Shown here: piece after piece, positions 2,253-62,315 of the stretch
How positions within the stretch are numbered: the first letter of the stretch is position 1
Layout: each line of letters begins with the position of its first letter
NCBI RefSeq assembly: GCF_016862995.1
Contig: NZ_BOOA01000031.1
Span: 1 to 64,000, forward strand
Length of the DNA stretch: 64,000 nt
Origin: Acrocarpospora phusangensis
GTDB lineage: Bacteria > Actinomycetota > Actinomycetes > Streptosporangiales > Streptosporangiaceae
Reading direction: 5' to 3'
Notes under the pieces: generated by a model
Seen by the model: only the letters and a program-made list of their open reading frames with translations
What the model was told of the DNA's origin: nothing
Database searches by the model: none
Position numbers and translations under genes: made by a program

Positions 2253-4112
2253 GTGACGGCGTTGCGGCTGTCGGTTGGGAACCTGCTCGCCTCCCCGAAC
2301 GAGGTCGCGCTGGCGGCGGTGATCGCGGAACACGTGCGTACGGCCACCGGGCGCGGGCCGTCCCCGGCGGAGATCAGATCCTGGCAGCGGAGCCTGCCCG
2401 CGCTGGCCCGGGACCTGGCCGACGCCGGCCTGGACGGGGTCGAGATGCTGGTCGAGTACAAACTTCCGCTGACGAGCAGGCGCGCGGACGTCGTCCTCGC
2501 GGGTGTGCATCCGCGTACGGGCGCGGATTCCTACGTGGTGGTCGAACTCAAGCAGTGGAGCCGGGCCGAGCCGTCCGAACTGGGTGAGCACCTGGTCGTC
2601 GTGGAGGGTCACCCGGGTGGTGAGACGCTCAATCCGGCCGAGCAGGTCCGCCGCTACTGCGAATACATGCGGGACTTCCTGGGCGTCTTCAAGGACGAAC
2701 CCGATGCCGTGCACGGTGTGGCCTACCTGCACAACGCGATGGACATGGACGTGGACGGTCTGGCCGACCAGGTCCGTGACGAGAGAAGCCGGCTGTTCAC
2801 GAAACAACGGCGGGGCGATTTCCTCCGCTACCTGGGCGGACGGCTCTCCGGCGATTCCGGTGCGGCCGCCGCGGATCGGCTGCTGAAAAGCGTCGTGGCG
2901 CCGAGCAAGCAGCTCATGGCGTACGCGGCGAGGGAGATCCGCGAGCGGGAGCAGTTCACGCTGCTGGACGAGCAGCAGGTGGCCTTCGAAATGGTGATGC
3001 GCGCGGTGACCGACGCCCGCAGGGCCGACACCAAACAGGTCGTCCTGGTGACCGGTGGCCCGGGCAGTGGGAAGAGCGTCATCGCCCTCTCCCTGCTGGG
3101 CGAACTGTTCCGCCAGGGCCGCGCCGCTTTGTACGCCACCGGCTCCCAGTCCTTCACCCAGACCCTGCGGCGTTATCCCGGCCGGGGCAGCACCCGCATC
3201 AAGAACCTGTTCACCTACTTCAACAGTTTCGTCGACGCCGACCCGAACGACCTGGCCGTGCTGATCTGCGACGAGGCCCACCGGATCCGCGAGACGTCCA
3301 CCAACCGCTTCACTCCCGCCGCGAAACGCACCGGCCGCAGCCAGCTCGACGAACTGCTGTCCGCGGCGCGCGTGCCCGTCTTCCTGCTCGACCAGCACCA
3401 GGTCGTACGGCCCGGCGAAGTCGGCACCGTGGAGCGCATCGAGACCGGCGCCCGGGCCAGAGGCTACGACGTGCACCGCGTCTCCCTGGACGAGCAGTTC
3501 CGGTGCGGCGGCAGCCGGAAGTACGAACGCTGGGTGCTGAGCTTTCTCGGCCTGACCGAAGCGCAGCCCTTCGCCTGGGACGGCGACGAGGATTTCGAGG
3601 TGCGCTTAGCCGGCTCGCCGCACGAACTCGAAGCCGCGCTTCGCGCCAGGCACGGCACGGCCAGGATGACCGCCGGATTCTGCTGGCCGTGGAGCGACCC
3701 GACCCCGCACGACACCCTCGTGGACGACGTGGTGATCGGCGACTGGGCCCGCCCGTGGAACGTCAAGAAGGACCGCGCCGTGGGTGACGCGCCGCCCAGC
3801 ATGCTGTGGGCCAGCGAACCCGGGGGATTCGCCCAGGTGGGCTGCGTCTACACCGCCCAGGGCTTCGAGTACGACTGGAACGGCGTCATCCTCGGACCGG
3901 ACCTGACCGTCCGGGACGGGCGGCTGGCCACGGTGCGCGAGGCCAACCGGGACCCGGCCTTCAAGAGCCGCCGATCCGTCTCCGACGAGGAGTTCGACCG
4001 GCTTGTCCGCAACGTCTACAAGGTCCTGCTGACCAGGGGCATGCGCGGGACACTGATCTACGCGGTCGATCCCGGCCTGCGGGAGCACCTGGCGGGGATC
4101 GTCGCCGCCTAG
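2253..4112 (+). CDS. DUF2075-family protein: N-terminal PD-(D/E)xK/NERD-like nuclease motif plus P-loop NTPase/helicase-like core
   Basis: 619 aa. 'RRADVVLAGV...SYVVVELKQW' fits a D...E-x-K nuclease motif. Walker A 'TGGPGSGKS'. Walker B-like 'VLICDEAHR'. C-terminal UvrD-like region. Confidence 0.75.
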   Translation: MTALRLSVGNLLASPNEVALAAVIAEHVRTATGRGPSPAEIRSWQRSLPALARDLADAGLDGVEMLVEYKLPLTSRRADVVLAGVHPRTGADSYVVVELKQWSRAEPSELGEHLVVVEGHPGGETLNPAEQVRRYCEYMRDFLGVFKDEPDAVHGVAYLHNAMDMDVDGLADQVRDERSRLFTKQRRGDFLRYLGGRLSGDSGAAAADRLLKSVVAPSKQLMAYAAREIREREQFTLLDEQQVAFEMVMRAVTDARRADTKQVVLVTGGPGSGKSVIALSLLGELFRQGRAALYATGSQSFTQTLRRYPGRGSTRIKNLFTYFNSFVDADPNDLAVLICDEAHRIRETSTNRFTPAAKRTGRSQLDELLSAARVPVFLLDQHQVVRPGEVGTVERIETGARARGYDVHRVSLDEQFRCGGSRKYERWVLSFLGLTEAQPFAWDGDEDFEVRLAGSPHELEAALRARHGTARMTAGFCWPWSDPTPHDTLVDDVVIGDWARPWNVKKDRAVGDAPPSMLWASEPGGFAQVGCVYTAQGFEYDWNGVILGPDLTVRDGRLATVREANRDPAFKSRRSVSDEEFDRLVRNVYKVLLTRGMRGTLIYAVDPGLREHLAGIVAA

Positions 4113-8824: not shown

Positions 8825-9514
8825 TCAGGTGGAGCGTGGCGGGCCGAAGTCGGCGCTCAGGCAGGGCATGTCGTCCGCGCCGGTCAGGCTCACCTGGGCG
8901 ATTCGCGAGACCGGCACGTCGATCATGCGTCCCCACGCGCCCGACCCCGACTGCACGGTGATCGTCCCCAGCGTCTGGAACCCGCCGTCCCTGGTGCTCA
9001 GCCTGACCGTGTACGGCCCGGCGGTCGTCCCGTACTTCACCGTGATGAAGATCCACGAGGGTGCGCCCTGGTAGGCGAAGATGCGGCCGGCGGTGCTGCC
9101 GTCCGGGGCGGTGAACGTCTTGGCCGTCATGTACCGGCCGTTGGCCGCCTCCAGGGTGCGGCGGTAGCTGTCGGCCACCCGGCGGTCGTCGGCCGTGGCC
9201 TGCCACACCCCGACCCCGCCGAGCGCCATCGCCACCAGGATCGCCGCCGCCAGCCGCAGCAGCCTCGGCCACCGCCGCCGCGGCGGGTTCAGCGCGGCCA
9301 GCACGCCGACCTCGAAACCCGGCGGCGGCTCCACCGCCGGCGCCAGCGGCAGCAGTTCGTCCACCACGAACGCGGCGGCGTCCAGTTCGCGGTTGCAGTC
9401 GGTGCAGGTGGCCACATGCCTGAGCGCGCGGGCCCGCTCGTCGCCCGCGGCCACCCCGGCCGCGAGTTCGGGAATCAGCTCCCGGACGGCCGCGCATTCC
9501 GGTGTCTCAGTCAT
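8825..9514 (-). CDS. anti-sigma factor (zinc-finger HxxxCxxC type, single-pass membrane)
   Basis: 'RHVATCTDC' zf-HC2 motif. A transmembrane segment ('LLRLAAAILVAMALGGVGVW') after the first ~90 aa. 8-nt overlap with the upstream ECF sigma gene. Confidence 0.8.
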   Translation of the reverse strand: MTETPECAAVRELIPELAAGVAAGDERARALRHVATCTDCNRELDAAAFVVDELLPLAPAVEPPPGFEVGVLAALNPPRRRWPRLLRLAAAILVAMALGGVGVWQATADDRRVADSYRRTLEAANGRYMTAKTFTAPDGSTAGRIFAYQGAPSWIFITVKYGTTAGPYTVRLSTRDGGFQTLGTITVQSGSGAWGRMIDVPVSRIAQVSLTGADDMPCLSADFGPPRST

Positions 9515-10052
9515 CGGTCACCCCCAGTTCCTGCCTCAGTCTGGCCAGTCCACGCCTGATCCGGGTCTTGACCGTGCCCAGCGGAATGCCCTCCCGGTCG
9601 GCGATCTCTTTGGCGGTAAGTCCGTAAAATACTGACATCACGATGGGGCGGCTCTGTTCCAAGGGCAGCGCCCGCAGACCCGCGCGGAGCTGGTCGGATC
9701 CGTACGGCCCGGTCTCGAACGGATCCTCCGCCGGGGCGGCGTACATCGCCCGCAGCAGCGACTCCGGGTCGGACCGGTGTTTGTGGTTCAGCCGGATGGC
9801 GTCCACCGCCAGGTTGCGGGTGATCGTCAGCAGCCAGGTGGCCACCCGGCCCCGGCGGGGGTCGTAGGTGGCGGCATGCCGCCAGACGCGGACGAACGCC
9901 TCCTGGGCCACCTCCTCGGCCAGGCCGGTGTCCCCGACCACGCTCAGCGCGAGTCCGAAGACCCGTGCCTGAAACCTCCGGACGAAGGCCGCGGCGGCCT
10001 CCGCGTCGCCCGAAGCCATCCCCGCGACGAGAGATTCATCCGACAGCGCCAC
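9507..10052 (-). CDS. ECF (sigma-70 family) RNA polymerase sigma factor
   Basis: 181 aa. Region 2 'LALSVVGDTGLAEEVAQEAFVRVW' and region 4 'LTAKEIADREGIPLGTVKTRIRRG'. GTG start. Confidence 0.85.
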   Translation of the reverse strand: MALSDESLVAGMASGDAEAAAAFVRRFQARVFGLALSVVGDTGLAEEVAQEAFVRVWRHAATYDPRRGRVATWLLTITRNLAVDAIRLNHKHRSDPESLLRAMYAAPAEDPFETGPYGSDQLRAGLRALPLEQSRPIVMSVFYGLTAKEIADREGIPLGTVKTRIRRGLARLRQELGVTDD

Positions 10053-10060
10053 ACGTCTAC

Positions 10061-10085
10061 GACGAATCGCGGACGCCGTTGGTTC
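10061..10085 (-). promoter_or_regulatory. candidate ECF-type promoter (GAACC-N16-CGTC on the minus strand) immediately upstream of the sigma-factor GTG start
   Basis: Reverse complement of 10061-10085 reads 'GAACCaacggcgtccgcgattCGTC'. The -10 element lies about 9 nt from the GTG start, which implies a leaderless or near-leaderless autoregulated transcript. Confidence 0.3.
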
Positions 10086-10123
10086 AGTGAATCTTCTGAC
10101 GATTTTTCACCGTATAACCGGGC

Positions 10124-11188
10124 GTGGAGGCCATGGTGAATGTCCGGGACTTCGAGGGCGCGGCGAAAGCCGTACTCGATCCCGTCTATTACGACTATTT
10201 CGCTTCGGGCGCGCAGGACGAGGTCACCGTACGGGCCAACGAGGAGGCGTTCCGGCGTCTCGCCCTGGTGCCCCGAGTCCTGCGTGGTCACAAGCCCCCC
10301 CGTCTCGGTCATACCGTGCTCGGCAGTCAGGCCTCCATGCCGATCATGGTGTCGCCCACCGCGTTCCACCGGCTCGCCCATCCCGAGGGGGAACGGGCCA
10401 GCGCCAGGGCGGCGGCCGAGGCGGGGGTCATCATGATCGCCGCGATGCTGGCCACCGTGGCCGTCGAGGACATGGCCGCCGAGGCCCGCAAGGTCGCCGA
10501 CGACCCCGCCCTCTGGTTCCAGCTCTACCTCCAGCCCGACCTGGGCTTCACCGAGGCGCTCGTACGCCGGGCCGAGGCGGCTGGCTGCGCCGCCCTGGTC
10601 GTCACCGTGGACTCCCCGGCGCTCGGCCGCAACGAGCGCGGCGACCGCAACGGCTTCCACGACCTGCCGCCCGGCATCCGCTGCGAGAACCTCCGCGAGG
10701 CCGGCGGCGACGTCCGGAGTGTGGTGCTCTCGCCGGAGATCTCCTGGCGGCACATCGACTGGCTGCGCGGCGTCACCGCCCTGCCGATCGTGCTCAAGGG
10801 AGTGCTCCACCCGGCCGACGCCGCCCTCGCGCTGCGCCACGGCGTGGACGCGATCCTGGTGTCCAACCACGGCGGCCGCCAGCTGGACGGCACGCCCGCC
10901 GCCGTCGACCGGCTGCCCGTGCTCGCGGACGCGGTCGGCGGCGAGATCCCGCTGCTGCTCGACGGCGGGATCCGGCGCGGCACCGACGTCGTCAAGGCCC
11001 TCGCCCTGGGGGCCAGCGCCGCCGCGATCGGCCGGCCGGTGCTGTGGGGGCTCGCGGCGGACGGCGAGCAGGGCGTCAGCCGGGTGCTCGGCCTGCTCCG
11101 CACCGAACTGCTCAACGCGCTCACGTTGTGCGGCTGCGACTCGGCCGAGTCGGTGCCGCGTGATCTCGTCGTCCGAGGAGCCATGTGA
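10124..11188 (+). CDS. FMN-dependent alpha-hydroxy-acid oxidase/dehydrogenase (glycolate oxidase / lactate oxidase / hydroxymandelate oxidase family)
   Basis: 354 aa. TIM-barrel FMN-dependent dehydrogenase signature ('SNHGGRQLDG', 'LLDGGIRRGTDVVKALALGA'). The start may be at MVNV (10133). Confidence 0.85.
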   Translation: MEAMVNVRDFEGAAKAVLDPVYYDYFASGAQDEVTVRANEEAFRRLALVPRVLRGHKPPRLGHTVLGSQASMPIMVSPTAFHRLAHPEGERASARAAAEAGVIMIAAMLATVAVEDMAAEARKVADDPALWFQLYLQPDLGFTEALVRRAEAAGCAALVVTVDSPALGRNERGDRNGFHDLPPGIRCENLREAGGDVRSVVLSPEISWRHIDWLRGVTALPIVLKGVLHPADAALALRHGVDAILVSNHGGRQLDGTPAAVDRLPVLADAVGGEIPLLLDGGIRRGTDVVKALALGASAAAIGRPVLWGLAADGEQGVSRVLGLLRTELLNALTLCGCDSAESVPRDLVVRGAM

Positions 11189-11850
11189 AGATCATCGGGG
11201 CCGGCGTCGGCCGGACCGGGACGTTGTCGCTCAAATCCGCCCTGGAAGTGCTCGGGCTCGGCCCGTGCTTCCACGGCCGGCACGTGCTCGACCACCCCGA
11301 CCGGCTCGCCCTCTGGGAAGCCGCCGCCGAGGGCAGGCCGGTCGACTGGACGGCCGTCTTCGACGGCTACCGCGCCAGTGTGGACTGGCCGGGCGCCGCG
11401 TACTGGCGGGAGCTGCTCGCCGCCTTCCCCGACGCCAAGGTCATCCTCACCGTCCGCGAACCCCAGGGCTGGTACGACAGCGTCAACCGCACCATCTACC
11501 CCATGTTCGGCAGCGGCGCCGACCCCCGCGCCCAGCACGCCCTGCGCGTCGTGCCCGGACTCGACGTGTTCACCGCCTTCCACCGGCGGATGATCTGGGA
11601 CGGCTTCTTCGGCGGCAGGTTCGCCGACCGCGACCACGCCGTCGCCGTCTACGAGGAGCACAACGCGGCCGTGCTGCGGGAGGTGCCGGCCGAGCGGCTG
11701 CTGGTCATCCAGCCGGGGGACGGGTGGCAGCCGCTCTGCGACTTCCTCGGGCTGCCGGTGCCGGTGGAGCCGTACCCGCATCTGAACGATCCCGACCGGT
11801 TCTGGGGGCGGGTGGCGGCCCGGATGGCGGAAGCCACGCGGGAAGGATGA
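11185..11850 (+). CDS. sulfotransferase family protein (Stf0-like, PAPS-dependent)
   Basis: 221 aa. 5'-PSB P-loop 'GVGRTGTLSL'. ATGA overlap with the upstream oxidase gene. Confidence 0.75.
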   Translation: MKIIGAGVGRTGTLSLKSALEVLGLGPCFHGRHVLDHPDRLALWEAAAEGRPVDWTAVFDGYRASVDWPGAAYWRELLAAFPDAKVILTVREPQGWYDSVNRTIYPMFGSGADPRAQHALRVVPGLDVFTAFHRRMIWDGFFGGRFADRDHAVAVYEEHNAAVLREVPAERLLVIQPGDGWQPLCDFLGLPVPVEPYPHLNDPDRFWGRVAARMAEATREG

Positions 11851-13196
11851 TGCTGCTCGCCGGGCTTCTGGTGGCGGTGGGGAGCCTGCCGTACTGGATG
11901 CCGAGGGCGGTGGTGGGCCTGCGGATGTGGATCTTCACGAGGATCAACGGCGAGGAGGGCATCCCGATCCCCGGGCCGCTCGTGCCCGTCGAGCGGTTCC
12001 GGCAGGTCTACGCCGACCCCGCCGCCAGCGGGCGCAGCCGCGGCGCCGCCCTCTCCGACCTGTTCTGGTACTGGCTGTCGCCCGGCGCCCACCTCCACCA
12101 GGAGCACCTGGAACCCGGCGAACGCTACGACGAGGTGGCCCGCGCCACCCGCCGTTTCCTCTCCCTGCCCACCGCCGAGGTCACCGCCCTCGCCGAACGC
12201 TGCGCCGCCCGCGTCCACCCATCCCGGCGGGTACGCCTCCGCGACCTGATGATGCCGCTCTGGGCGGAGTTCTTCTACGAGGTGGTCTTCGCCGAACGCT
12301 GCCCACCCGACGCCCGCGACCTGATCGTCGCCAACGCCGACGACGTGGTCACCGCGCTCAAGGGCTGCGGCCTGCGCCACATGGACCGCCGCCACCGCCT
12401 CACCGCCTACCTGGAAACCCGCCTCGGCGACGTACGGCATCCGCTCCCCGCCGGCCTCACCCCCCGCGAGCAGGCCCTCTACCTGCAGGGCACGTTCTTC
12501 AACACCGCCGTCGTGCAGCAGTCCGAGGCGTCCGCGCACATCCTGATGGCGCTGGCCCGGCATCCCGAGTCCCAGCAGGCTTCACTGGCCCACGTCATCG
12601 ACGAGACCTTCCGGCTCTACCCGTTGTTCGGCGTCGCCCACCGGGTCACCTCCGCCGACATCGCCGTCGACGAGCGCACGGTGCTGCCCGCGGGCTCCGT
12701 GCTCTGCTTCAACTACCCGGCCTTCCACCGCGCCGGCTTCGACCGTCCCGGCGACTTCGACCCCGGCCGGTGGGAAGGCGTGTCGGCCAAGAACGCCAAC
12801 CACATTCCGTACGGGATGGCCGCCAACCGGCCCTGCCCGGCCTGGCGGCTCTCCCCGATCGCCCTGCGCGCGGTCGTCGCCGAGCTGACGCGGCGCCACT
12901 CCTTCCACAGCACGGCCGCGCAGACGCGCTCCCTGCCCAACCGCGGGCCGTGCCTCGTGCTGCCGGCGGGGGCCAGGCCCTCCGCGCTCGCTCTGCTGTT
13001 CATCCGGGTCAGGGACCGCTGGGAGGACGTCGGGCGCGGGCTCGTGCAGCTCGTGCTCGGCAGCTACATGGTCTGGGACGCCCGGCGGGAGCGCCTGTGC
13101 GAACGCCACTTCGCGGCGAGTGGCAGCAGCAGTCCGGCTCCCGCGACCAGCATCAGCGACGTGACGATCCACTCGTTGGAGCCACCGGGGCCGTAG
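11847..13196 (+). CDS. cytochrome P450
   Basis: ExxR motif 'DETFRLYP'. Heme loop 'PYGMAANRPCPA' (degenerate FxxGxxxCxG). ATGA overlap with the sulfotransferase stop. The long upstream ORF 10719.. is an alternative-frame artefact. The C-terminal ~45 aa overlap a convergent ORF. Confidence 0.7.
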   Translation: MMLLAGLLVAVGSLPYWMPRAVVGLRMWIFTRINGEEGIPIPGPLVPVERFRQVYADPAASGRSRGAALSDLFWYWLSPGAHLHQEHLEPGERYDEVARATRRFLSLPTAEVTALAERCAARVHPSRRVRLRDLMMPLWAEFFYEVVFAERCPPDARDLIVANADDVVTALKGCGLRHMDRRHRLTAYLETRLGDVRHPLPAGLTPREQALYLQGTFFNTAVVQQSEASAHILMALARHPESQQASLAHVIDETFRLYPLFGVAHRVTSADIAVDERTVLPAGSVLCFNYPAFHRAGFDRPGDFDPGRWEGVSAKNANHIPYGMAANRPCPAWRLSPIALRAVVAELTRRHSFHSTAAQTRSLPNRGPCLVLPAGARPSALALLFIRVRDRWEDVGRGLVQLVLGSYMVWDARRERLCERHFAASGSSSPAPATSISDVTIHSLEPPGP

Positions 13197-13450
13197 ACGT
13201 ACGCGCGGCGGCCGATGTCGACGGCCGGGATGCGCTGGCCCTGGGTGAGGGCGGGGCTGCCGTACAGGTAGACGTCGCGGCGTTCGCCGCCGGCCGTGAA
13301 CGTGCCGTACCAGGAGCAGGCCTCGTGGCCGAGGTGGGAGACGCACCGGGAGTAGGTCGCGGTGAACGTGCCGGGCACCCCTTCGGCGCGGGCCGCGCGC
13401 AGCGCCGGGCCCATCGCCGGGACCGCCAGCACCAGCAGGAGCACCGCCGC
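13064..13450 (-). CDS. small membrane protein (N- and C-terminal TM segments); start approximate
   Basis: Only the C-terminal ~128 aa of ORF 13064..13993 look protein-like ('FTVAVSTTAAVLLLVLAVPAMGP...'). The upstream part is an alternative frame of the 13489..14022 gene. Confidence 0.35.
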   Translation of the reverse strand, partial: AAVLLLVLAVPAMGPALRAARAEGVPGTFTATYSRCVSHLGHEACSWYGTFTAGGERRDVYLYGSPALTQGQRIPAVDIGRRAYVYGPGGSNEWIVTSLMLVAGAGLLLPLAAKWRSHRRSRRASQTM

Positions 13451-13488
13451 CGTGGTGGACACGGCGACGGTGAACCCGGACGGCCCGC

Positions 13489-14022
13489 TCAAGCGGGCGC
13501 GCACGTGCAGGCGGCGTTCTCGGACTGCCTGCGGTGCAGGACCATGGCGACGATCATGGGGATGAAGACCAGGGTGTTGTAGAACAGGTGCAGCTCCACC
13601 CGGGGCACGATCAGCTGCGCGATGCTGGTGGGCACGGCCTTGCCGGCCAGGAAGAGGCCCGACTGCGCCTGGAAGAGCAGAAGCAGGTGCTCCAGGTGGT
13701 GCCAGACCTGGATGCCGAGCGAGATGTTCCACCACGTGCGAGCCGTTCCGGTGAACCCCTTGCGAAGCACGATCAGACCGACGAGCATGATCAACGCGTA
13801 CCCGTAGTGCAGCGCCTCGGACTTGACGACCCACGGGAAGAACTGCCCGAGAACGCCGCGCGATTCGGGGACCGGCCAGCCCAGACCCCAGATCTGGATG
13901 GCTTGGACGATGTGTTCGGCCCAGTGGGCGATGACGATGAACAGGAAGACATTGAGCGCTGTGCGGTGACCACCCGCGTTGAGCGACTGCCACCTACCTC
14001 CACGGATCGGGATCGCTGTCAT
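13489..14022 (-). CDS. integral membrane protein (about 4 TM), unknown family
   Basis: 177 aa with hydrophobic helices rich in W, H and F. Balanced composition. Confidence 0.6.
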   Translation of the reverse strand: MTAIPIRGGRWQSLNAGGHRTALNVFLFIVIAHWAEHIVQAIQIWGLGWPVPESRGVLGQFFPWVVKSEALHYGYALIMLVGLIVLRKGFTGTARTWWNISLGIQVWHHLEHLLLLFQAQSGLFLAGKAVPTSIAQLIVPRVELHLFYNTLVFIPMIVAMVLHRRQSENAACTCAPA

Positions 14023-14155
14023 CCAGGTCTCCTTGGTAATTGCCTACCTTCTCACCATGTTGTACGGGAAATCGGTGGCGGCGAGATTCCTCGACATGGT
14101 CTGAATCCCGTGACTTTCCCCCGCCGTACTACCGAATGACCCCAGGAGGAGATCG

Positions 14156-15613
14156 ATGTTCCCCGCCCCCGTTCTTGACGCGCTGCGGATGTCGCCGGAC
14201 CGTACCGCCATCGAGTACGGAGGGCGCGAGATCTCCTGCGGTGAGCTGCTCACCACCGTCGCGCGCATGGCCGCGGGACTGCGCGCCGCCGGGCTCGGCC
14301 GCGGCTGCGGCGTCGCCCTCATGACCGCCACCAACCCCGACGCGTACGCCGCCCACCTGGCCGCGCACGCCCTCGGCTGCCGGGTCGCCGCCTTCCGCCC
14401 GCGCTGGAGCGGCAAGCAGATCGCGCACGCCCTCGGCTACCAGTTCGACGCCCTCATCGTCGACCCCGGCGCTCGCCCCGGCGATCTGGACGTCCCCGTC
14501 CTCGACACCGCCACCCTGCGCGCCAACCCCGCAGGACCCCTCACCGCCGGCGCGCGCCCCGACGACATCGCCCGGCTGACCTTCACCAGCGGCAGCACCG
14601 GCCAGCCCAAGGGCTGCGCCCAGACCTACCGGGCCTTCAGCCTCGCCTACCAGCGCGACGACTGGCCGCCGCAGCTGGCCTCGCTCATGACGGCCTTCCA
14701 GCGCTGCCTCATCCACGAGAGTCTCGCCAGCCCCGTCATGATGACCTACCTCGGCCGCTGCCTCGTCGCCGGCGGCACCGTCGTCATGAGCAACGAGGAA
14801 CTCACCCCCGAGCTGCTGGAACGCCACCGCGTCACCGCCACCATGATGCCGCCGCCGCGCCTGCACGTCCTGCTCGCGACCCTGCACCAGCGCCCCGCCG
14901 ACCTCAGCGCCCTGCGCGCGGTCGTCCTCGGCGGCTCACCCGCCGACCCCGGCCTCCTCGCCGCCGCCATCGACCGCTTCGGCCCCATCGTCTGGCAGGG
15001 GTACGGCCAGGCCGAAGGCGGCGTCATCTCCATGCTCACCCCCACCGACATCGCCACCCACCCCGACGCCCTCACCACCGTCGGCCGCCCCCTCCCGACC
15101 GTCGAACTCAGCGTCCGCAACTACGAGGACCACGCCTCCGTACCCGGCCAGATCTGGGTACGCAGCCCGCACATGATGTCCCGCTACTGGAACGACCCCG
15201 ACCAGACCGCGGAGGTCCTCCAGGACGGCTGGCTCCACACCCGCGACATCGGCTACCTCGGCCCCGACGGCCTGCTCCGCCTGACCGGCCGCAGCCGCGA
15301 CGTCATCCTCGTCAACGCCGAGGTCTGCTACCCCACCGCCATCGAACGCGTCCTCGCCTCCCACCCCTCCGTCTCCGCCGCGTACGTCACCAGCACCCCC
15401 GATCCCGCCACCGGCGAAGCCGTACACGCCTTCGTCGTCCCCACCCCCGGCCACCCCATCGACAACGAAGCCCTCCTCTCCCTGGTCACCTCCTCCCTCA
15501 GCAAAGCCCACACCCCCAAAACCATCACCGTCCTCACCTCAGTCCCCACCACCCCCGCCGGCAAACCCGACAAACACGCCCTAACCACCCTCCTCCCCCT
15601 CCTCAACCCCTGA
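14156..15613 (+). CDS. AMP-dependent synthetase/ligase (acyl-CoA synthetase family)
   Basis: 485 aa. AMP-binding motif 'TFTSGSTGQPKG' and 'GYGQAEGG'. Confidence 0.85.
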   Translation: MFPAPVLDALRMSPDRTAIEYGGREISCGELLTTVARMAAGLRAAGLGRGCGVALMTATNPDAYAAHLAAHALGCRVAAFRPRWSGKQIAHALGYQFDALIVDPGARPGDLDVPVLDTATLRANPAGPLTAGARPDDIARLTFTSGSTGQPKGCAQTYRAFSLAYQRDDWPPQLASLMTAFQRCLIHESLASPVMMTYLGRCLVAGGTVVMSNEELTPELLERHRVTATMMPPPRLHVLLATLHQRPADLSALRAVVLGGSPADPGLLAAAIDRFGPIVWQGYGQAEGGVISMLTPTDIATHPDALTTVGRPLPTVELSVRNYEDHASVPGQIWVRSPHMMSRYWNDPDQTAEVLQDGWLHTRDIGYLGPDGLLRLTGRSRDVILVNAEVCYPTAIERVLASHPSVSAAYVTSTPDPATGEAVHAFVVPTPGHPIDNEALLSLVTSSLSKAHTPKTITVLTSVPTTPAGKPDKHALTTLLPLLNP

Positions 15614-15628
15614 CCCTTAAGGCACCGT

Positions 15629-16168
15629 TCAGTTTGGGCATAGACGCGGAGCGTGATGGACGGGTCGGCGTGGCGTTCGGGACACGCGGATGAAGACGGT
15701 CGTCGCCGTGGGCGTGAACTGGTTCGTGCTCATCCGCTGCCAGATCCAACTCCCGCCGCGGAGCCGCTCATGACCTCGATGTTGAAGTACTGGTTGCCCG
15801 ATCTGGTCCAGGCCGAGAACTGGCAGTTGGCTTGGGCCCCGTTCGCCACCGGGGTGATCCTCAAGCTCCGGCCCACCGAGGACCACGTCCCGTAGAGACC
15901 GCCCGAGGACAGATCGGCATAATACGAGGGGCTGTGCGCGCCGGAGGGTTCCTCCGCTGTCCCCTGGCGAGGAGACGAACTTCCCGGCGCCGCCATCGTG
16001 GTCGAAGGTGAAGCGCGACTGGGGCGGCATGAAAGTGCGGACCTCCATGTCATCGGAGAAGCTCCACGAGGCCGCCTGCGCATTCCCGGGCATTCCCACG
16101 ATCACGGATGCGACTACGGTGACCACGGCGACCGTCGTACGAGCCAGACGATGCGCGGCGCTTCTCAT
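15629..16168 (-). pseudogene. frameshifted small secreted protein (signal peptide in one frame, conserved-looking C-terminus in another)
   Basis: ORF 15629..16168 begins with a signal peptide ('TTVAVVTVVASVIVGMPGNAQAAS'), then turns Arg/Gly-rich. Overlapping ORF 15730..16083 carries a protein-like C-terminus ('ITPVANGAQANCQFSAWTRSGNQYFNIEVM'). Consistent with a +1/-1 frameshift, real or a sequencing error. Confidence 0.4.
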
Positions 16169-16589
16169 GCACGCTGCCTTCCGACGGCGGCGGCGACGAC
16201 GTCAGCAACTTCTCCCATCTCCGAGGCTCAATCTGACGAGAGGGGCACATCAGGGGTTAGACCGGGGAACTGGATCGGCCGCACAGGCGACACCACAGAC
16301 GGGGTATTGCGAGCCAACCCGCCCGCCGCCCGCCAGGAGATTCGCGTGTCTGCTTCTCTCTATCGGAGGTGCCTACCCAGACCGCCGGACGGCCCGCTCA
16401 AGCTGCTCCCGGCCTTTGGGTTGGGTTCGAGGTCGCGAGTGGTGCACCGCTGACCGGTCCACATGATTAATAGACGGATTTTGTCGGTCATTTGAAATTG
16501 CATTCGAAAATGTCAATATTTTGATTTGTCGGATGATTTGTTAACGTCCCTGTGATGTCAATGATCATTTCCGCGTCTTAAGGAACTCG

Positions 16590-30403: not shown

Positions 30404-30946
30404 ATGAGCGACTTGGTGGAAACGGCGCTGGAGTTTCCCGCCGTCCTGTTCACGTTCGCGCTGCTGGTCGTGCTGGTGTTCTGGGTGCTCGTGGTGACCG
30501 GGCTGGCCGATCTGGACGACGGCGAATTGCTGAGCATTCCGATGGCCGCGGCGGTCTCGTTTTTCGTGGCCGTGGCCTGGTTCGTCACGCTCGCCGGAAC
30601 ACATCTCTTCACTGGTGGCCCGGCCCGGGTCGCCGTGCTCGCCGTCGCGCTGGCCGGGGGCTGGCTCAGCGCGCGCCTGCTGCTGTCCGCCGTGCGCAAG
30701 GCGCTGCCCGCGGTCCGGGCGCCGTCCCGTACGGACTTCGTCGGCCGCCTCTGCGTGCTCCGCACCAGCACGGTGACCCGGGATTTCGGCCAAGCCGAAG
30801 TGCACGCCGAGGACGGCTCCTCCGCGGTGATCCAGGTCCGGCAGACCGGCACCGACACCTTCCGCGCGGGCGGCACCGCGCTGATCTTCGACTATGACGC
30901 GGAAGGCGAGTTCTTCTGGGTCATGCCCTACGAGGGGGAACTCTGA
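30404..30946 (+). CDS. NfeD-like / YqiJ-family membrane protein (TM helices plus C-terminal OB-fold)
   Basis: Three N-terminal TM helices. C-terminal beta-rich segment typical of NfeD OB domains. Stop TGA immediately abuts the flotillin ATG. Confidence 0.7.
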   Translation: MSDLVETALEFPAVLFTFALLVVLVFWVLVVTGLADLDDGELLSIPMAAAVSFFVAVAWFVTLAGTHLFTGGPARVAVLAVALAGGWLSARLLLSAVRKALPAVRAPSRTDFVGRLCVLRTSTVTRDFGQAEVHAEDGSSAVIQVRQTGTDTFRAGGTALIFDYDAEGEFFWVMPYEGEL

Positions 30947-33031
30947 ATGGACGTCATCTCCGCCGGGTTCGGCATCTTAGTCGCCGTCATCCTGCTGATC
31001 GTGATCGGTCTGGTGTTCATCATCAGCCGCCTGTTCCGCAAGGTGGAGCAGGGTAAGGCGCTGATCGTCTCCAAGGTGCGCCGGGTGGACGTGACGTTCA
31101 CGGGCGCGGTCGTGCTGCCCGTGGTGCACAAGGCCGAGGTGATGGACATCTCGGTCAAGACCATCGAGATCGAGCGGTCCGGCAACGAGGGGCTGATCTG
31201 CCGGGACAACATCAGGGCCGACATCCGGATCACCTTCTTCGTCCGGGTCAACAAGACCGCGGAGGACGTGGTGAAGGTGGCCCAGGCCATCGGCACCGCC
31301 AGGGCCAGCGACGAGGGCACCCTGCAGACGCTGTTCAACGCCAAGTTCTCCGAGGCGCTCAAGACGGTCGGCAAGCACCTGGACTTCGTCGACCTGTACA
31401 CCAAGCGGGACGAGTTCCGGGACCAGATCCTGCGCGTCATCGGCACCGACCTCAATGGGTACAGCCTGGAGGACGCGGCCATCGACTACCTGGAGCAGAC
31501 GCCGCTGGCCAAGCTGGACCCGGCCAACATCCTGGACGCCCAGGGCATCCGCAAGATCACCGAGTTGACCGCCATCGAGCACGTGCGCACCAACGAGTTC
31601 CAGCGCAACGAGGAGAAGGAGATCACCCGGCAGAACGTGGACGCCCGGGAGGCCATCCTGGAGCTGGAGCGCCGCCAGGCCGACGCGGAGACCAAGCAGA
31701 AGCGCGAGGTCGAGACCATGCAGGCGCGCGAGGAGGCGGAGACCGCCAAGGTGCGCGCCGAGGAGCGCCTCAAGGCCGAGGCCGCGGCGGTGCGGACGGA
31801 CGAGCAGCTGGGCATCCAGCGGCAGAACCGGGACCGGGAGATCGCCGTCGCGCAGAAGAACCGCGAGCGGGTCATCGCCATCGAGACCGAGCGCATCGAG
31901 AAGGACCGCCTGCTCGAGGTGATCGCCAGGGAGCGGGAGACCGAACTCTCCACGATCGCCAAGGACAAGGAGATCGAGGTCGAGAGGCGGGCCATCGCCG
32001 AGGTGACGCGGGAGCGCATCGCGGTCGACAAGACGGTGGCCGAGCAGGAGGAGCACATCAAGCGGCTGCGCGTGGTGGAGGAGGCCGAGCGCACCCGCCA
32101 GGCCGTCATCATCGGCGCCGAGGCCGAGGCCCAGGAGAACCTGGTCAAGGACATCAAGGCGGCCGAGGCCGCCGAGCAGGCCGCCAAGTTCCGGGCCCGC
32201 GAGGAACTGGTGCTGGCCGAGGCCCGGCAGCAGGCGGCCGAGCTGGACGCCCGCGCCAAGATCCGGCTGGCCGAGGGCGTGCAGGCCGAAGCGGCCGCGG
32301 CCGGCCTGGCCGAGGTGCAGGTCAAGGAGCGGGACGCGGCCGCCATCGAGAAGGTGGGCCGGGCCCAGGCCGCCGTCGAGCGGGAGAAGGCCCTGGCGAG
32401 CGCGGAGGGCACCCGGGAGCGGCTGAAGGCCGAGGCGGACGGCGAGCAGGCCAAGGCCCTGTCCGCCGCCATGATGGTGGGCGAGAAGCTGAAGGCCGAG
32501 GCGGAGGGCCTGACCGAGAAGGCCGCCGCGATCGCCGCGATGACCGACGCGGGCCGGGGCCACGAGGAGTACCGGCTGCGCCTTGAGGCCGAGAAGGAGA
32601 TCCGGCTGGCCGGGGTCAAGGCGCATCGCGAGGTCGCCGAGGCGCAGGCCGCCGTGCTCTCCGCGGGGCTCCAGCAGGCCAGCATCGACATCGTCGGCGG
32701 CGACTCGGTGTTCCTGGACAAGCTGGTCGGCTCGGTCGCGCTGGGCAAGAGCGTGGACGGGTTCCTGGACAGCTCCGAGGCGGCGCGGTCGATCGCGGCG
32801 CCGTACCTGAACGGGACGGGGAGCCTGGCCGACGACCTGGCGAAGATCGTCAATGGGGTGGACAGCGCGGACGTGCGGAACCTGACGCTGTCGGCGTTCC
32901 TGCTGCGGCTGATCCAGACCGGTGGCGCGGACACCGACAAGCTGCGTGAGCTGCTGACCACCGCGCAGCGGCTCGGCGTGGCCGAGGCCCCCATGGCCAC
33001 GGTCGCCGCGCTCGACCCGGCCAAGTCGTGA
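30947..33031 (+). CDS. flotillin-family SPFH/Band-7 protein (YqiK/FloT-like)
   Basis: N-terminal TM. SPFH domain ('ALIVSKVRRVDVTFTGAVVLPVVHKAEVMDISVKTIEIE'). About 400 aa of Glu/Ala/Arg-rich coiled coil. Flotillin C-terminal region. Confidence 0.85.
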   Translation: MDVISAGFGILVAVILLIVIGLVFIISRLFRKVEQGKALIVSKVRRVDVTFTGAVVLPVVHKAEVMDISVKTIEIERSGNEGLICRDNIRADIRITFFVRVNKTAEDVVKVAQAIGTARASDEGTLQTLFNAKFSEALKTVGKHLDFVDLYTKRDEFRDQILRVIGTDLNGYSLEDAAIDYLEQTPLAKLDPANILDAQGIRKITELTAIEHVRTNEFQRNEEKEITRQNVDAREAILELERRQADAETKQKREVETMQAREEAETAKVRAEERLKAEAAAVRTDEQLGIQRQNRDREIAVAQKNRERVIAIETERIEKDRLLEVIARERETELSTIAKDKEIEVERRAIAEVTRERIAVDKTVAEQEEHIKRLRVVEEAERTRQAVIIGAEAEAQENLVKDIKAAEAAEQAAKFRAREELVLAEARQQAAELDARAKIRLAEGVQAEAAAAGLAEVQVKERDAAAIEKVGRAQAAVEREKALASAEGTRERLKAEADGEQAKALSAAMMVGEKLKAEAEGLTEKAAAIAAMTDAGRGHEEYRLRLEAEKEIRLAGVKAHREVAEAQAAVLSAGLQQASIDIVGGDSVFLDKLVGSVALGKSVDGFLDSSEAARSIAAPYLNGTGSLADDLAKIVNGVDSADVRNLTLSAFLLRLIQTGGADTDKLRELLTTAQRLGVAEAPMATVAALDPAKS

Positions 33032-36000
33032 CCGCCGATGTCGAGAAGGCCGATGTCGAGAAGGCCGATGTCGTGACGGCCGGTCTGGACGCGGGCACGT
33101 ACGAGATCCTGCGGGCCCGGCTGGCCGGGCAGGCCGGCGAGCTGGCCGCCGCGGCGGAGCAGCTCAACCAGCGGCGGCTCGGCGTGTTCGGCAGCTCCGA
33201 GCTGCGGCTGATCGGGACCGAGCGGATCAGGACCGAGAACAACTGCGTGCCCAGGGACATCGTCTCGGCCGGGGACACGATGGTGTTCGGCTACAACGTG
33301 TTCATCGGGCTGAAGCCGCAGACCGCGGTGGCGGACGTCTTCGCCTTCCACCGGTTCTCCCGGGACGGGGACGCCTTCCGGTTCGACGACGCGCCCAGCC
33401 TGTTCACCGACCCGCAGTTCGAGCGGGACTTCGGCGAGCTGTACCGGTACTACAAGGAGACGCGCCTGCTGCAGCTGCGCCGGGTGGAAGGGCGGCTGCT
33501 GGCGGTCTTCCAGACCGGGCCGCAGGACATCCGGGTGCTGCGCTGGGCGGTCGGCAACGACGGCGGGCTCACCTACCTGGACAACCGGGGCGAGCGCGAC
33601 CACGTGTTCCCGCCCGCGCACGACTTCGAGTGGGTGGAGACCACCCGGGACGACCACGTGCTGGGACGGCATCCGCACATCTCGATCGGGGGCGAGGTGT
33701 TCGTCGAGACGGTCGGCGGCGACCTCACCATCAAGGTCGAGAACAACACGGAGACGGGGGAGGGCGTCTACCGGGAGCCGGTGGCGGAGCCGCTGCAGAG
33801 CCTGGCCGACGCGGACGTCTGGCACGCGCGGGTGGGGCCGCTGATCCTGCTGAAGATCAGGCCGTACAAGGAGACCGAGTGGCGGTACCTGGTGTTCAAC
33901 ACCAGGACCAGGGAGGTCGTACGGCTGGACGGCATCGGGCAGGCGTGCCGGCGGCTGCCGGAGGACCAGGGGATCATCTTCCCGGGCGGCTACTACCTGA
34001 CGACCGGCGTCGTGAAGACCTTCGAGACCGACGTGGCCAGCCTGGAGTACGAGCGGGTCATCCGGGCCGAGGAGGACGTGCTCTACGTCTTCCACGCCCG
34101 GGAGGAGGGGCGCTCGCTGCTGCTGCCGTACAACGTGATCCGCAAGGAGGTGGCGACGCCGATCTCCTGCCACGGCTACTCGCTGTTCGACGACGGCACG
34201 CTCGTGGTGTTCAAGGCGGTGTCGGACGAGCCGACCCGGGTGCATCCGATGCAGGTGTGGCAGACGCCGTACCAGACGGAGACGGCGGCGCCGACCGGGA
34301 CCGGGCCGCTGGAGCGGATCGGCAACGGGGAGCTGGTCCGGGGCATCTCGGACTGCCTGTCGATCACCCGGATGGTGCGGGAGATGTCGCCGGCCGCGCC
34401 GGTCTTCGAGGCGCTGATCGCGGCCTGCGAGCGGGCCTTCGACGCCTACCACTGGCTGGGCGAGCACGGGCTGCGGGAGCCGCTGACCGCGCTGCGGGCC
34501 ACCGCCGAGCAGGTGCTCGACGAGTTCGAGAACGTGCAGGAGATGACCGCGCAGGCCGTGCTCGCGCTGGACGAGGCGGCGGCGCGGATCAAGGCCGTCG
34601 ACGGGGACGGGGTGACCCGGCTGGCCGAGCTGCGGCGGGCGCAGGGGCACCTGGTGACGCTGCGGGAGCGGCGGCACATGGACCTGGCCCGGCTGGACGG
34701 CATGGCGGCGGGCCTAGCCGAGGAGCTGGCCGCGACCGCCGGGCGGGTGGTCGGGCAACTGCGGGACGCGGACGCGTTCACCGGCTACCACGACGAGGTG
34801 AACCGGCTGGCCGCCGACGCGGAGGCGATCACCACCGTGGCCGGGGCGGGACCGGTCACCGACCGGCTCGACCGGCAGGCGACCGGCCTGGAGACCCTCG
34901 TCGAGGTCGTCGGCACGCTCGACGTCGACGCCACCGCGCGCACCGCCATCCTGGAGCACGTCGGATCGGTGCTGGCCGGGATCAACCGGGCCAGGGCCAC
35001 CCTGGACGCGCGCCGCCGCGAACTGCTGGGCAGCGAGGGACGCGCGGCCTTCGCCGCCGAGTTCGCGCTGCTCGGACAGGCCGTCGCCGCCGCGCTCGCC
35101 GGGTCCGGCACGCCGGAGCGCTGCGACGAGCAACTCGGGCGGCTGCTGCTCCAGCTGGAAGGGCTGGAGTCGCGGTTCACCGACTTCGACGACTTCCTCG
35201 CCCAGCTGGAACGCAAACGGGAGGACGTCTACGAGGCGTTCTCGGCGCGCAAGCAGACCCTGCTGGACGAGCGGGCGCGCCGGGCCGACCGCCTGGTGGA
35301 GTCCGCGGACCGCATCCTCGGCAGCGTACGGCGTCGCTCGGCCGCCCTGGCAAGCCTCGACGAGGTCAACACCTACTTCGCCACCGACCCGATGGTGGGC
35401 AAACTGCGCGGGGTCGCCGAGGAGCTGCGCGAACTCGGCGACCAGGTGCGGGCCGAGGAGCTGGACGGCCGGGTACGGGCCGCCCGCCAGGAGGCCGGGC
35501 GCAGCCTCCGCGACCGCCTCGACCTGTTCGACGGCGACGCCGTACGGCTGGGCAGGCACCGGTTCGCCGTCAACACCCAGCCCGCGGACCTGACCCTGGT
35601 GCCGCACGAGGGCGGCCTGGCCTTCGCCATCACCGGCACCGACTACCGCTCGCCCGTCGCCGACCCGGCCTTCGCGGACACCCGGCCGTTCTGGAACCAG
35701 CTCCTGATCTCCGAGACCGCCGAGGTCTACCGCGCGGAGCACCTGGCCACCGCCGTGCTCGCGGCCGGGAACCCGCCCGAGGGCGACCTGCTGGCGCACG
35801 TACGGCGGGCCGCCGAGGAACGTTTCGACGAGGGCTACGAGCGGGGCGTGCACGACCACGACGCCGCCGCGATCCTGGACGTGCTCCGCCACCTGCACGC
35901 GGGCGCCGGCCTGCTGCGCTACCCCGCGCCGGCCCGCGCCGCCGCCCAGTTCTTCTGGGCCTTCGGCACGGACGAGCCCGCCCGCGCCCGCTGGACGACA

Positions 36001-40459: not shown

Positions 40460-41374
40460 TCAGCTGTCCCACAGGTCGGGCACCCGGCTGCTGAGCTTCT
40501 CGGCCGCGGACCACAGTTCCAGCAGCCAGGGCACGGCCTCCCCGGTGCCCGCCACCAGCGAGCGGTCCTCCGTGAGCGTGCCCACCCGCGGGTCGAAGGC
40601 GCGCCCGGAGGGGTCGGTGACCCGCAGGCCCGCCTCGGTGGCGATCAGCGCGCCCGCGTGCAGGTCCAGCTCGCCGATCTCGTAGCCGACGATGCCGTCC
40701 AGGTCGCCCCTGGCCAGCATGACCCAGCTCAGCAGCGGCGCCCACAGCCGCAGCACCCGGGTGGACTCCCGGTCGAGCACCAGCCGCAGCGCGGTCGCGG
40801 TCGGGTCCTCCGGCGTGACCCGGTAGCCCTGGTTCCACGCCAGCGTCGGGCGGCTGCGCGGGGGCCGCTCCCGCCGGACGAGCGGGCGGTCCCGGCCCGC
40901 GAACGCGCCCTGGTGGCGCACGGCCGACCAGGTGTGCCCGGAGCCCGGCTCGTGCACCGCCGCCACGACCGGCAGGCCGCGCAGGCAGAGCGTGATCCCC
41001 ACCGTGTAGACGTTGAGGCCCATCGCGATGTTGTTGGTCCCGTCCAGCGGGTCGACCAGCCAGTTCCACCGCACGTCGCCGCTGAGCGTGCCCGCCTCCT
41101 CCGAGACGATCTGGTGGTGCGGGTAGCGGGCCCTGATCCGGTCCACGATCAGCCGCTCGGCGGCCAGGTCCAGCTCGGTGACCAGGTCGCCCTCGCTCTT
41201 CGCCCAGACGTCGAAGTGCCGGTCGGACCGGCCGCGCAGCAGGCTCCCGGCGCTCTCGGCCGCGTCGATCGCCACATACCGGGCCTGTTGAAGGTCAACC
41301 GTCTCCCGCCGCATCCCTGAAGCCCTTCTCGCCGGGATCACCGGTCCAGTCCCAAGACTTTCGCCGCGATGCAC
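40460..41374 (-). CDS. inositol monophosphatase family protein
   Basis: 'WLVDPLDGTNN' IMPase motif. Confidence 0.8.
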   Translation of the reverse strand: MHRGESLGTGPVIPARRASGMRRETVDLQQARYVAIDAAESAGSLLRGRSDRHFDVWAKSEGDLVTELDLAAERLIVDRIRARYPHHQIVSEEAGTLSGDVRWNWLVDPLDGTNNIAMGLNVYTVGITLCLRGLPVVAAVHEPGSGHTWSAVRHQGAFAGRDRPLVRRERPPRSRPTLAWNQGYRVTPEDPTATALRLVLDRESTRVLRLWAPLLSWVMLARGDLDGIVGYEIGELDLHAGALIATEAGLRVTDPSGRAFDPRVGTLTEDRSLVAGTGEAVPWLLELWSAAEKLSSRVPDLWDS

Positions 41375-58037: not shown

Positions 58038-58065
58038 TGTGACATATCCCGATAGAGTCGGCGGC

Positions 58066-62074: not shown

Positions 62075-62315
62075 CCCTCACTCGACTTCGACCCCCAAGG
62101 TGCCGGCGCAGGCATCGCTCATGCTCGTCCCGGTGAGCAGTGTCCTCACGGCGGCGGGATTCACCTCGGGCGGGATGCACCGCGGTGGCGTGGATGGCGA
62201 GATGCGACTTCGGAGGATCACTGGTTGCTCTCGGTTGTCCACCGAAGGTGTGGTCACGTGGGCTTAACACGGGAACGGTGGGCAGGGAGTGGGGATGGCG
62301 TGGACGATGGGTGGC

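Follow-up and report, generated by a model that had tools for sequence, protein, structure and literature searches.

The subject of this study is a set of three overlapping genes in a 64-kb stretch of Acrocarpospora phusangensis DNA (GC content ~70%), hereafter referred to as the window, which encode a flavin mononucleotide (FMN)-dependent 2-hydroxy-acid oxidase, a sulfotransferase and a cytochrome P450, and which may form the core of a conserved module acting on a carboxylic acid. All three lie on the plus strand. The oxidase (Pfam FMN_dh, PF01070) occupies positions 10124-11188, the Sulfotransfer_4 sulfotransferase (PF17784) positions 11185-11850, between the other two and overlapping both, and the P450 (Pfam p450), a diverged and membrane-anchored protein, positions 11847-13196; Pfam confirms the three enzyme families that an earlier note on this DNA had placed here. 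The GC content at third codon positions (GC3) of the three open reading frames (ORFs), found among many spurious ones, is 0.92-0.95, and because such values are typical of genuine genes in a genome of ~70% GC, they are regarded as real genes. The earlier note had also read ATGA at both overlaps, which is correct for the second (11847-11850), while the first (11185-11188) reads GTGA: the last codons of the oxidase are ATG TGA, and a GAGGAG ribosome-binding site lies four bases ahead of GTG 11185, the start codon of the sulfotransferase. The P450 product is 100% identical to the protein annotated in A. phusangensis; the start given by NCBI lies one codon downstream, at 11850, and gives a product of 448 aa. 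The true start of the oxidase is probably GTG 10136 and not GTG 10124, because a GGAGG sequence precedes it at 10126-10130 and because, in Acrocarpospora macrocephala, this GTG is retained while the ATG matching position 10133 is lost. The trio is thus overlapping, co-directional and translationally coupled.

Downstream of the trio, an AMP-forming acyl- or aryl-coenzyme A (CoA) ligase is encoded on the plus strand at 14156-15613 (AMP-binding, 3e-53; AMP-binding_C, 5e-13). This gene, already pointed out in the earlier note, belongs with the trio, since it is syntenic in 59 of the 82 loci compared below and has a promoter motif in common with the oxidase operon. The lack of a core synthase that the same note reported is likewise borne out, no polyketide synthase (PKS) or nonribosomal peptide synthetase (NRPS) domain being found in any gene scanned by Pfam across the window.

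The conservation of this arrangement was assessed in relatives, using one genome per species. At least 591 genomes contain a relative, and the best 80 loci, mostly from Streptosporangiales, with a few from Pseudonocardiales and some from metagenome-assembled genomes, were used for synteny, homologues being located in each locus by tblastn and counts being given over 82 loci, the window included. The P450 adjoins the oxidase in 80 loci and is accompanied by a flavoprotein in 72, by the ligase (within 8 kb) in 59 and by a Sulfotransfer_4 protein in 43. Measured from the stop of the oxidase to the start of the P450, the gap is -4 nt in the median and at most 30 nt in 71 of 76 loci, and the median gap between the flavoprotein and the oxidase is ~1 nt. 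Synteny in relatives, whose absence the earlier note had named as one part of what would refute its reading, is therefore strong, and because the oxidase and the P450 adjoin in nearly every locus with such a gap, their arrangement is not due to chance. The possibility that these are unrelated neighbours whose overlaps represent ordinary operon packing is extremely improbable: 4-nt overlaps are indeed common in high-GC actinobacterial operons, but the set keeps its members through at least four different gene orders and in both lineages and several bacterial families, a promoter motif is held in common, and the synteny data contradict such a view.

The flavoprotein is of the NAD(P)H/FAD type (Pyr_redox_3), with YpdA and ArsO as the nearest named families, and carries FAD and NAD(P)H motifs without a Baeyer-Villiger monooxygenase (BVMO) or flavin-containing monooxygenase (FMO) fingerprint. 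The commonest gene order, found in 29 loci, is a sulfotransferase on the minus strand followed by ligase, flavoprotein, oxidase and P450 on the plus strand. A transporter of the CPA2 cation/proton antiporter type usually follows (62/83 loci), replaced in Actinoallomurus by a major facilitator superfamily (MFS) transporter of the aromatic-acid/H+ symporter type placed after the P450; an OmpR-type response regulator is found in 74 of 83 loci and a histidine kinase in 71. An unbootstrapped distance tree of the oxidases separates 67 sequences, designated lineage A, from a 12-member lineage B that comprises the window and loci L004 (A. macrocephala), L044, L008, L019, L035, L088, L089, L018, L052, L060 and L062. 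Anchoring the search on the sulfotransferase instead of the P450 revealed further arrangements. In Allorhizocola (L087, at a contig edge), oxidase and sulfotransferase genes are followed by those for an extracytoplasmic function (ECF) sigma factor and the ligase on the other strand; in Nonomuraea (L088), the order is ligase, P450 on the minus strand, oxidase-sulfotransferase and an ECF sigma factor on the minus strand; and on the metagenome contig L089, a P450 on the minus strand is followed by flavoprotein-oxidase-sulfotransferase and by a ligase on the minus strand. The gene set thus occurs in at least four gene orders, and the retention of membership while gene order is shuffled is a classic sign that the five genes constitute a functional unit. 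Its constant core is the oxidase paired with the P450, and the flavoprotein-oxidase-P450 trio is kept even in an unrelated metagenomic lineage with a P450 identity of only 51%.

The window contains a reduced and rearranged version of this five-gene set, without the flavoprotein, of which no homologue was found anywhere in the 64 kb. Two minus-strand genes, probably outside the module, lie between the P450 and the ligase. The one at 13489-14022 encodes a multi-pass membrane protein of 177 aa that contains the motifs AHWAEH and WHHLEH and is described by one source as 'HXXEE domain-containing'; its A. macrocephala counterpart (L004 11625-12158) is 94% identical and adjoins a coding-like ORF at L004 11200-11646. 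The window protein, with its two His-rich motifs, was considered as a stand-in for the flavoprotein and rejected, its family being too widespread in actinobacteria (4781 matches). The other, at ~13190-13480, may encode a small secreted protein, as its N-terminus, read by eye, resembles a signal peptide.

The oxidase matches PF01070 at 3.2e-118, its residues 14-349 covering profile positions 1-348 of 350. Among solved structures, human HAO1 (292 bits), spinach glycolate oxidase (287) and HAO2 (279) score best, followed by Hmo (230), flavocytochrome b2 (~208) and lactate oxidases (190-207). The L-lactate oxidase 7f22, which appears as the nearest solved oxidase at 1.5e-112, was set aside as an artefact, being a tandem fusion that scores 190 bits per copy. 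All NCBIfam equivalog cut-offs are missed (LldD, 245 versus 376 bits; lactate oxidase, 236 versus 645; MftD, 235 versus 471). The protein resembles HAO1, HAO2 and glycolate oxidase in its length (354 aa), in lacking the long insert by which mandelate dehydrogenase and LldD bind membranes, and in its catalytic residues, the Tyr, Tyr, Lys, His and Arg of HAO1 (which we take to be Tyr26, Tyr132, Lys236, His260 and Arg263) being identical in the alignment. It differs from these enzymes in being fixed beside a P450 and in three further features: the equivalent of the second carboxylate-binding Arg (presumably Arg167) is shifted by one position (LGRNE versus LGNR), a Leu stands opposite HAO1 Trp110, and loop 4 is ~10-15 residues shorter than in HAO1. 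In glycolate oxidase, the Trp at this position limits the size of the substrate. As to whether the enzyme reacts with O2 as an oxidase or transfers electrons to a quinone or cytochrome as a dehydrogenase, the missing membrane insert is only suggestive, and we know of no reliable sequence determinant that separates oxidases, which form H2O2, from dehydrogenases in the FMN_dh family.

The enzyme, described in the earlier note as Hmo/glycolate-oxidase-type, is nearer to glycolate oxidase and HAO1 than to Hmo, and the analogy with Hmo is weak. An identity with the Hmo of glycopeptide-antibiotic clusters was rejected, as the Hmo score falls below those of HAO1 and glycolate oxidase and no NRPS is present; nor could any window gene be assigned to HmaS or HpgT in the Pfam scans. 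Glycopeptide clusters do bring together the same three broad enzyme classes, in the form of Hmo, the Oxy P450s and StaL, and this resemblance probably lies behind the earlier comparison with Hmo. They differ in that the window has no NRPS or recognizable Hpg-pathway gene, in that the P450 here is membrane-anchored and tied to no particular soluble bacterial family, and in the sulfotransferase, since StaL presumably belongs to a family other than Sulfotransfer_4.

The sulfotransferase matches PF17784 over its entire length (2.1e-64, profile positions 1-215 of 215) and aligns at full length with the solved structures PDB 9kf1 (1.9e-61), on whose organism and function no literature was found, and SgdX2 (8y9p, 4.8e-56), which we take to belong to an enediyne-type cluster; the Schistosoma sulfotransferases follow at ~1e-26 to 1e-31. 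The N-terminal loop GAGVGRTGTLS corresponds to GAGFGRTGTLS in 9kf1 and GVGFGRTGTAS in SgdX2, and the GRTGT common to all three would, by analogy, be the loop that binds the phosphosulfate of 3'-phosphoadenosine 5'-phosphosulfate (PAPS). The enzyme is accordingly predicted to be PAPS-dependent and to transfer sulfate to a hydroxyl group. Its likeness to 9kf1 and SgdX2 stops at an identity of only ~50%, and the genomic context of SgdX2 differs.

Present in only about half of the loci, the sulfotransferases fall into two Sulfotransfer_4 lineages. Those encoded between oxidase and P450 make up a clade of their own, 43-49% identical to the divergently placed proteins of lineage A and at least as close to 9kf1 and SgdX2 as to these, and members of this clade follow an FMN_dh gene in L087, L088 and L089. 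Because this clade is distinct from the lineage-A proteins, two separate lineages appear to have become attached to the module. Additional sulfate-related genes were seen near three unrelated loci, namely a Sulfotransfer_3 gene and a sulfatase in L088 (1-2156), a Sulfotransfer_3/1 gene in L008 (2937-3923), with a LanC-like gene nearby, and two sulfatases in L086 (11790-15437), possibly a sign of sulfate-ester turnover in the vicinity of the pathway. In the window, an inositol-monophosphatase-family protein (8e-42) is encoded at 40460-41374 on the minus strand, 27 kb from the sulfotransferase; this family includes the CysQ-type phosphatases that remove 3'-phosphoadenosine 5'-phosphate, the by-product of PAPS-dependent sulfation, and a link between the two genes is speculative.

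The P450 is the unusual member of the three. Pfam p450 matches it at 4e-11 and over residues 248-363 only, and a search of 1.84 billion cluster representatives returned 413 matches at E<=1e-3 and 103 at 1e-30, many fewer than expected for a superfamily of this size, so that the clade is small and strongly diverged; it also appears to be new. Domain-based annotation under-counts this family, because two clade members of 405 and 418 aa detected by tblastn on the minus strand of L088 (4643-5860) and L089 (3128-4384), with 58-60% identity to the window P450, have no Pfam match on record. The protein has the P450 fold, with an anchor helix at the N-terminus and, at the C-terminus, a helix of ~36 residues specific to the family. 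The ExxR residues E252 and R255 are invariant in the family, as is the Cys ligand in C329-P330, within a PFGxxxNRPCPA motif that carries a one-residue insertion relative to CYP3A4. By profile, the protein is nearest to eukaryote-type membrane P450s (CYP3A4, 72 bits; CYP11/CYP24 group, ~51-56 bits). In the profile alignment, the family sequence 'vvQ' stands opposite 'YET' of CYP3A4, and the acid-alcohol pair is therefore replaced, Val taking the place of Glu and an invariant Gln223 that of Thr. The nearly invariant Glu226 and His230 follow one and two helical turns further along the I-helix. A second conserved element, an HQE motif at residues 83-85 (Glu85 invariant, His83 and Gln84 almost invariant), is placed by the P450 model between two early helices, in a stretch that would correspond to the B-C loop.

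CYP152 peroxygenases score ~42 bits against the protein. Members of this family (P450BSbeta, SPalpha and OleT) have an Arg-Pro pair in the I-helix that binds the substrate carboxylate. A CYP152 identity was rejected, as there is no specific affinity in sequence or fold, the motif positions hold Val-Gln and the I-helix segment has no Arg. The pairing with the oxidase is limited to the actinobacterial P450 clade and its relatives down to ~50% identity; more distant relatives, at 31-36% identity, have no adjoining oxidase.

Upstream of the oxidase and divergent from it lies the gene for a SigK-like ECF sigma factor (9507-10052, minus strand; Sigma70_r2, 5e-20; Sigma70_r4_2, 2e-13), which scores 138 bits against the SigK subfamily, under the cut-off of 226 bits, and is the probable regulator. 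The next gene (8825-9514, minus strand) encodes a membrane anti-sigma factor (Pfam zf-HC2, 2e-06), the probable sensor, with an HxxxCxxC motif (H33-x3-C37-x2-C40), a hydrophobic stretch at ~83-104 that provides its one transmembrane segment and an extracytoplasmic C-terminal domain. Homologues of the window sigma factor (58-92% identity) adjoin the module in L004, L087, L088 and L032, and anti-sigma factor homologues lie beside the sigma factor gene in L004 (85%) and L032 (45%). The 71-bp divergent intergenic region between the sigma factor and the oxidase holds two ECF-type promoter candidates: TGAACC-N16-CGTC (10061-10086, minus strand), which faces the sigma factor gene and would allow autoregulation, and TGAATC-N17-CGTA (10088-10114, plus strand), which faces the oxidase operon and ends 11 nt before the GGAGG. 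A third candidate, again TGAATC-N17-CGTA, faces the ligase (14102-14128, plus strand), directly before AGGAGG (14144-14149) and ATG 14156. The combined motif TGAAYC-N16-18-CGTM has four matches in the whole window against 1.07 expected, and three of the four, including the ligase-side match, which was not used in defining the motif, are at the module locus. The fourth (62906-62932, minus strand) lies inside the plus-strand ORF 62289-63998 with no obvious gene downstream of it on the minus strand and is probably due to chance. A scan of 9400-16300 for sigma-70 promoters and terminators gave nothing useful.

The same motif recurs in relatives. In A. macrocephala, all three sites are kept (the ligase site at L004 12238-12265), with identical -35 and -10 elements and variable spacers. 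It is found 39-50 nt ahead of a flavoprotein-oxidase-(sulfotransferase)-P450 operon in the Spongiactinospora loci L008, L019 and L035 and in the Actinophytocola-labelled L070, where tblastn of the locus revealed no sulfotransferase, and upstream of the ligase in Allorhizocola L087; in Nonomuraea L088, it precedes the divergent P450, and a copy with one mismatch faces the oxidase. In total, module genes in five genera are preceded by 12 exact, correctly oriented copies at a distance of 6-50 nt, all in lineage-B or related loci, where fewer than one would be expected from a background of 1.4e-5 per bp-strand. Given this shared ECF-type promoter motif, both the oxidase operon and the ligase probably belong to a single ECF regulon of the adjacent SigK-like sigma factor and its anti-sigma factor. 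Control may not be uniform across lineage B: L018, L052 and L062, which have no sulfotransferase, also have no ECF motif and instead carry a palindrome (CTCAGAAccTTCTGAG) ~60-90 nt upstream of the flavoprotein gene that heads their flavoprotein-oxidase-P450 operon, which suggests a different, repressor-type control. In lineage A, copies of the ECF motif antisense to the module are found between the CPA2 and response-regulator genes (L001 12696-12721, minus strand, and ~15 Actinomadura/Spirillospora loci); they could represent an antisense promoter, a binding site of the response regulator or shared ancestry of closely related loci.

The combination of order-wide distribution and dedicated regulators bears on the earlier note's main proposal, a cryptic tailoring cassette that yields a sulfated metabolite or a signalling lipid. 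Read as decorating the product of a synthase encoded elsewhere, that proposal now looks quite unlikely. All three families are common tailoring enzymes, and SgdX2, the closest solved sulfotransferase with a described role, is placed in a secondary-metabolite pathway by the title of reference 58 in PMC11677658, which names it the 'activating sulfotransferase' of sungeidine biosynthesis. A passage of PMC6469627 further describes the cyp128 operon of Mycobacterium tuberculosis, in which the P450 is proposed to hydroxylate a membrane lipid and the sulfotransferase Rv2267c (stf3) to sulfate the new hydroxyl, the product assigned being sulfomenaquinone (S881). This operon, with its P450 and sulfotransferase, offers a precedent for the logic of hydroxylation followed by sulfation, which the earlier note had also proposed; as described in that passage, it is without an FMN oxidase, a ligase or a flavoprotein, and it is likened to the present genes by operon logic, not by protein sequence, no mycobacterial protein being among the best 120 P450 homologues listed. 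Against a tailoring role, no core synthase (PKS, NRPS, terpene or ribosomally synthesized and post-translationally modified peptide) was found in the window or in most of the relatives' loci examined, and the genes are attached to no biosynthetic cluster. They occupy a stable locus found across Streptosporangiales with conserved flanks (the two-component system and CPA2), unlike patchily distributed biosynthetic clusters, and have regulators of their own. The exception among the relatives is the LanC-like gene of L008, which is isolated.

What the evidence favours, at a strength that falls a little short of probable, is that the trio is the core of a conserved, self-contained module, comprising ligase, flavoprotein, oxidase, sulfotransferase and membrane P450, that oxidises and sulfates a carboxylic acid. 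We infer a carboxylic acid as the substrate because a ligase and a 2-hydroxy-acid oxidase are present together, and it is probably lipophilic and membrane-associated. The replacement of Trp by Leu and the shorter lid of the oxidase, together with the membrane anchor of the P450, point to a molecule larger and more lipophilic than glycolate or lactate; the profile affinity of the P450 to lipid- and steroid-oxidising P450s and the organic-anion or CPA2 transporters of relatives point the same way. Sulfotransferases need a hydroxyl group, and a P450 can supply one. In the proposed sequence of events, the P450 would add a hydroxyl group to the substrate, the oxidase would turn a 2-hydroxy acid into a 2-oxo acid, and the sulfotransferase would esterify a hydroxyl with sulfate, either as the final modification or to create a leaving group, as in SgdX2. 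The order suggested in the earlier note, in which a lipid or aromatic acid would be hydroxylated, oxidised and sulfated, is plausible.

The same enzymes could also serve a catabolic or detoxifying alpha-oxidation of an exogenous fatty or aromatic acid, in which uptake would be followed by 2-hydroxylation by the P450, conversion to the 2-oxo acid by the oxidase and oxidative decarboxylation by the flavoprotein, the ligase then activating the shortened acid for beta-oxidation and the sulfotransferase providing an optional detoxifying side reaction. The enzyme set fits the steps of such a cycle, the ligase is nearest to fatty-acid-CoA ligase models (although below all cut-offs), Actinoallomurus has its aromatic-acid/H+ symporter-type transporter, and control is of a signal-sensing kind, by the ECF sigma factor here and by a two-component system in 71-74 of 83 loci. 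This reading is nonetheless unlikely. The flavoprotein has no BVMO or FMO fingerprint and is missing from the window, which breaks the cycle here; the transporter in most loci is of the CPA2 type and not an acid importer; no beta-oxidation genes adjoin; and the tight insertion of the sulfotransferase between oxidase and P450 suggests a central rather than an optional role.

Within the oxidising and sulfating module, the coupling of the oxidase to the P450 has three explanations: successive steps on one skeleton, transfer of H2O2, or transfer of electrons from FMN to heme. According to the last of these, the oxidase, and the flavoprotein where present, would be redox partners of the P450 and not pathway enzymes, electrons passing from a 2-hydroxy acid such as lactate through FMN to heme, or from NAD(P)H through FAD and FMN to heme. 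The coupling of flavoprotein, oxidase and P450 in that order, with the short gaps given above, would suit such a chain, and the FMN_dh family includes flavocytochrome b2, a relative with FMN-to-heme transfer (208 bits). No ferredoxin gene was found in any annotated neighbourhood examined, and the P450s nearest by profile, the eukaryote-type membrane enzymes, use flavoprotein partners. There is, however, no precedent for an FMN_dh barrel that reduces a P450, the P450 is without the acid-alcohol pair required for ordinary reductive O2 activation, the oxidase keeps the full catalytic set for hydroxy acids, and the ligase and sulfotransferase would be left unexplained, all of which make electron supply improbable.

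Our preferred sub-hypothesis for the coupling, possibly operating in addition to successive steps, is a transfer of H2O2 from the oxidase to a P450 that would work as a peroxygenase and need no redox partners; it is put forward tentatively and is, on balance, rather doubtful. It is favoured because the acid-alcohol pair has been lost, the I-helix instead bearing conserved Gln, Glu and His at intervals, because the conserved HQE motif is present at residues 83-85, because ferredoxin genes are absent from the vicinity and the flavoprotein is dispensable in the window lineage, and because the same pair of enzymes works as an engineered cascade. In that system (Gandomkar et al., PMC5768024), a CYP152 peroxygenase 2-hydroxylates a fatty acid with H2O2 and an (S)-alpha-hydroxy-acid oxidase oxidises the 2-hydroxy acid and regenerates H2O2, which is thus recycled internally in vitro. 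The two enzyme classes are those found here, so that the coupling is chemically workable; the cascade differs in being artificial, and the P450 of the window, a putative peroxygenase, is membrane-anchored and no CYP152 enzyme. Several points weigh against H2O2 transfer, namely that the flavoprotein, present in 72 of 82 loci and without a monooxygenase fingerprint, may be the reductase of the P450, that the oxidase might be a dehydrogenase, and that the P450 has no specific tie to CYP152. Taken further, H2O2 transfer would imply a natural, self-sustaining counterpart of the engineered cascade, in which H2O2 released as the oxidase consumes a 2-hydroxy acid drives the membrane P450, the resulting hydroxy acid or hydroxylated lipid is sulfated, the Gln, Glu and His of the I-helix stand in for the acid-alcohol pair, and the whole is switched on by an envelope-sensing ECF system; this fuller picture is somewhat less likely again.

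Elsewhere in the window, several genes were noted that are separate from the module. At 2253-4112 (plus strand) lies a gene whose 619-aa product carries a Schlafen group-3 DNA/RNA helicase domain (7e-85) and comes from a family often linked to defence. The plus-strand run at 30404-37806 (GC3 0.96-0.98) encodes a 180-aa protein of no assigned family, a 694-aa protein without a Pfam match and a 1592-aa protein that combines DUF3686 ('ATPase involved in DNA repair', 3e-210) with DUF7902 and an AAA domain. A SARP/AfsR-type regulator of 1078 aa (Trans_reg_C, BTAD and NACHT/AAA_16; 58039-61275, plus strand) directly follows an OmpR-type response regulator and a histidine kinase (56071-58037), with no biosynthetic genes adjoining within the window.

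Each enzyme of the module belongs to a known superfamily, while together they make up an uncharacterised oxidative and sulfating module, widely conserved and organised around a new P450 clade; in the literature searched, the coverage of which is incomplete, no published description of the gene combination, the P450 clade or the ECF regulon and its context was found. If the module acts as a unit, it represents an uncharacterised pathway in hundreds of Streptosporangiales and some other actinobacteria, groups that have been heavily mined for natural products. Having no core synthase, it would probably escape genome-mining tools that are built on such enzymes. At its centre is a P450 clade that is without the normal O2-activation residues and is fixed beside an enzyme of an H2O2-producing type, and if catalysis is indeed driven by peroxide, this clade would be a new natural source of P450 catalysts that need no partner proteins. 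The predicted ECF regulon, for its part, offers a practical handle for switching on the genes and revealing their product.

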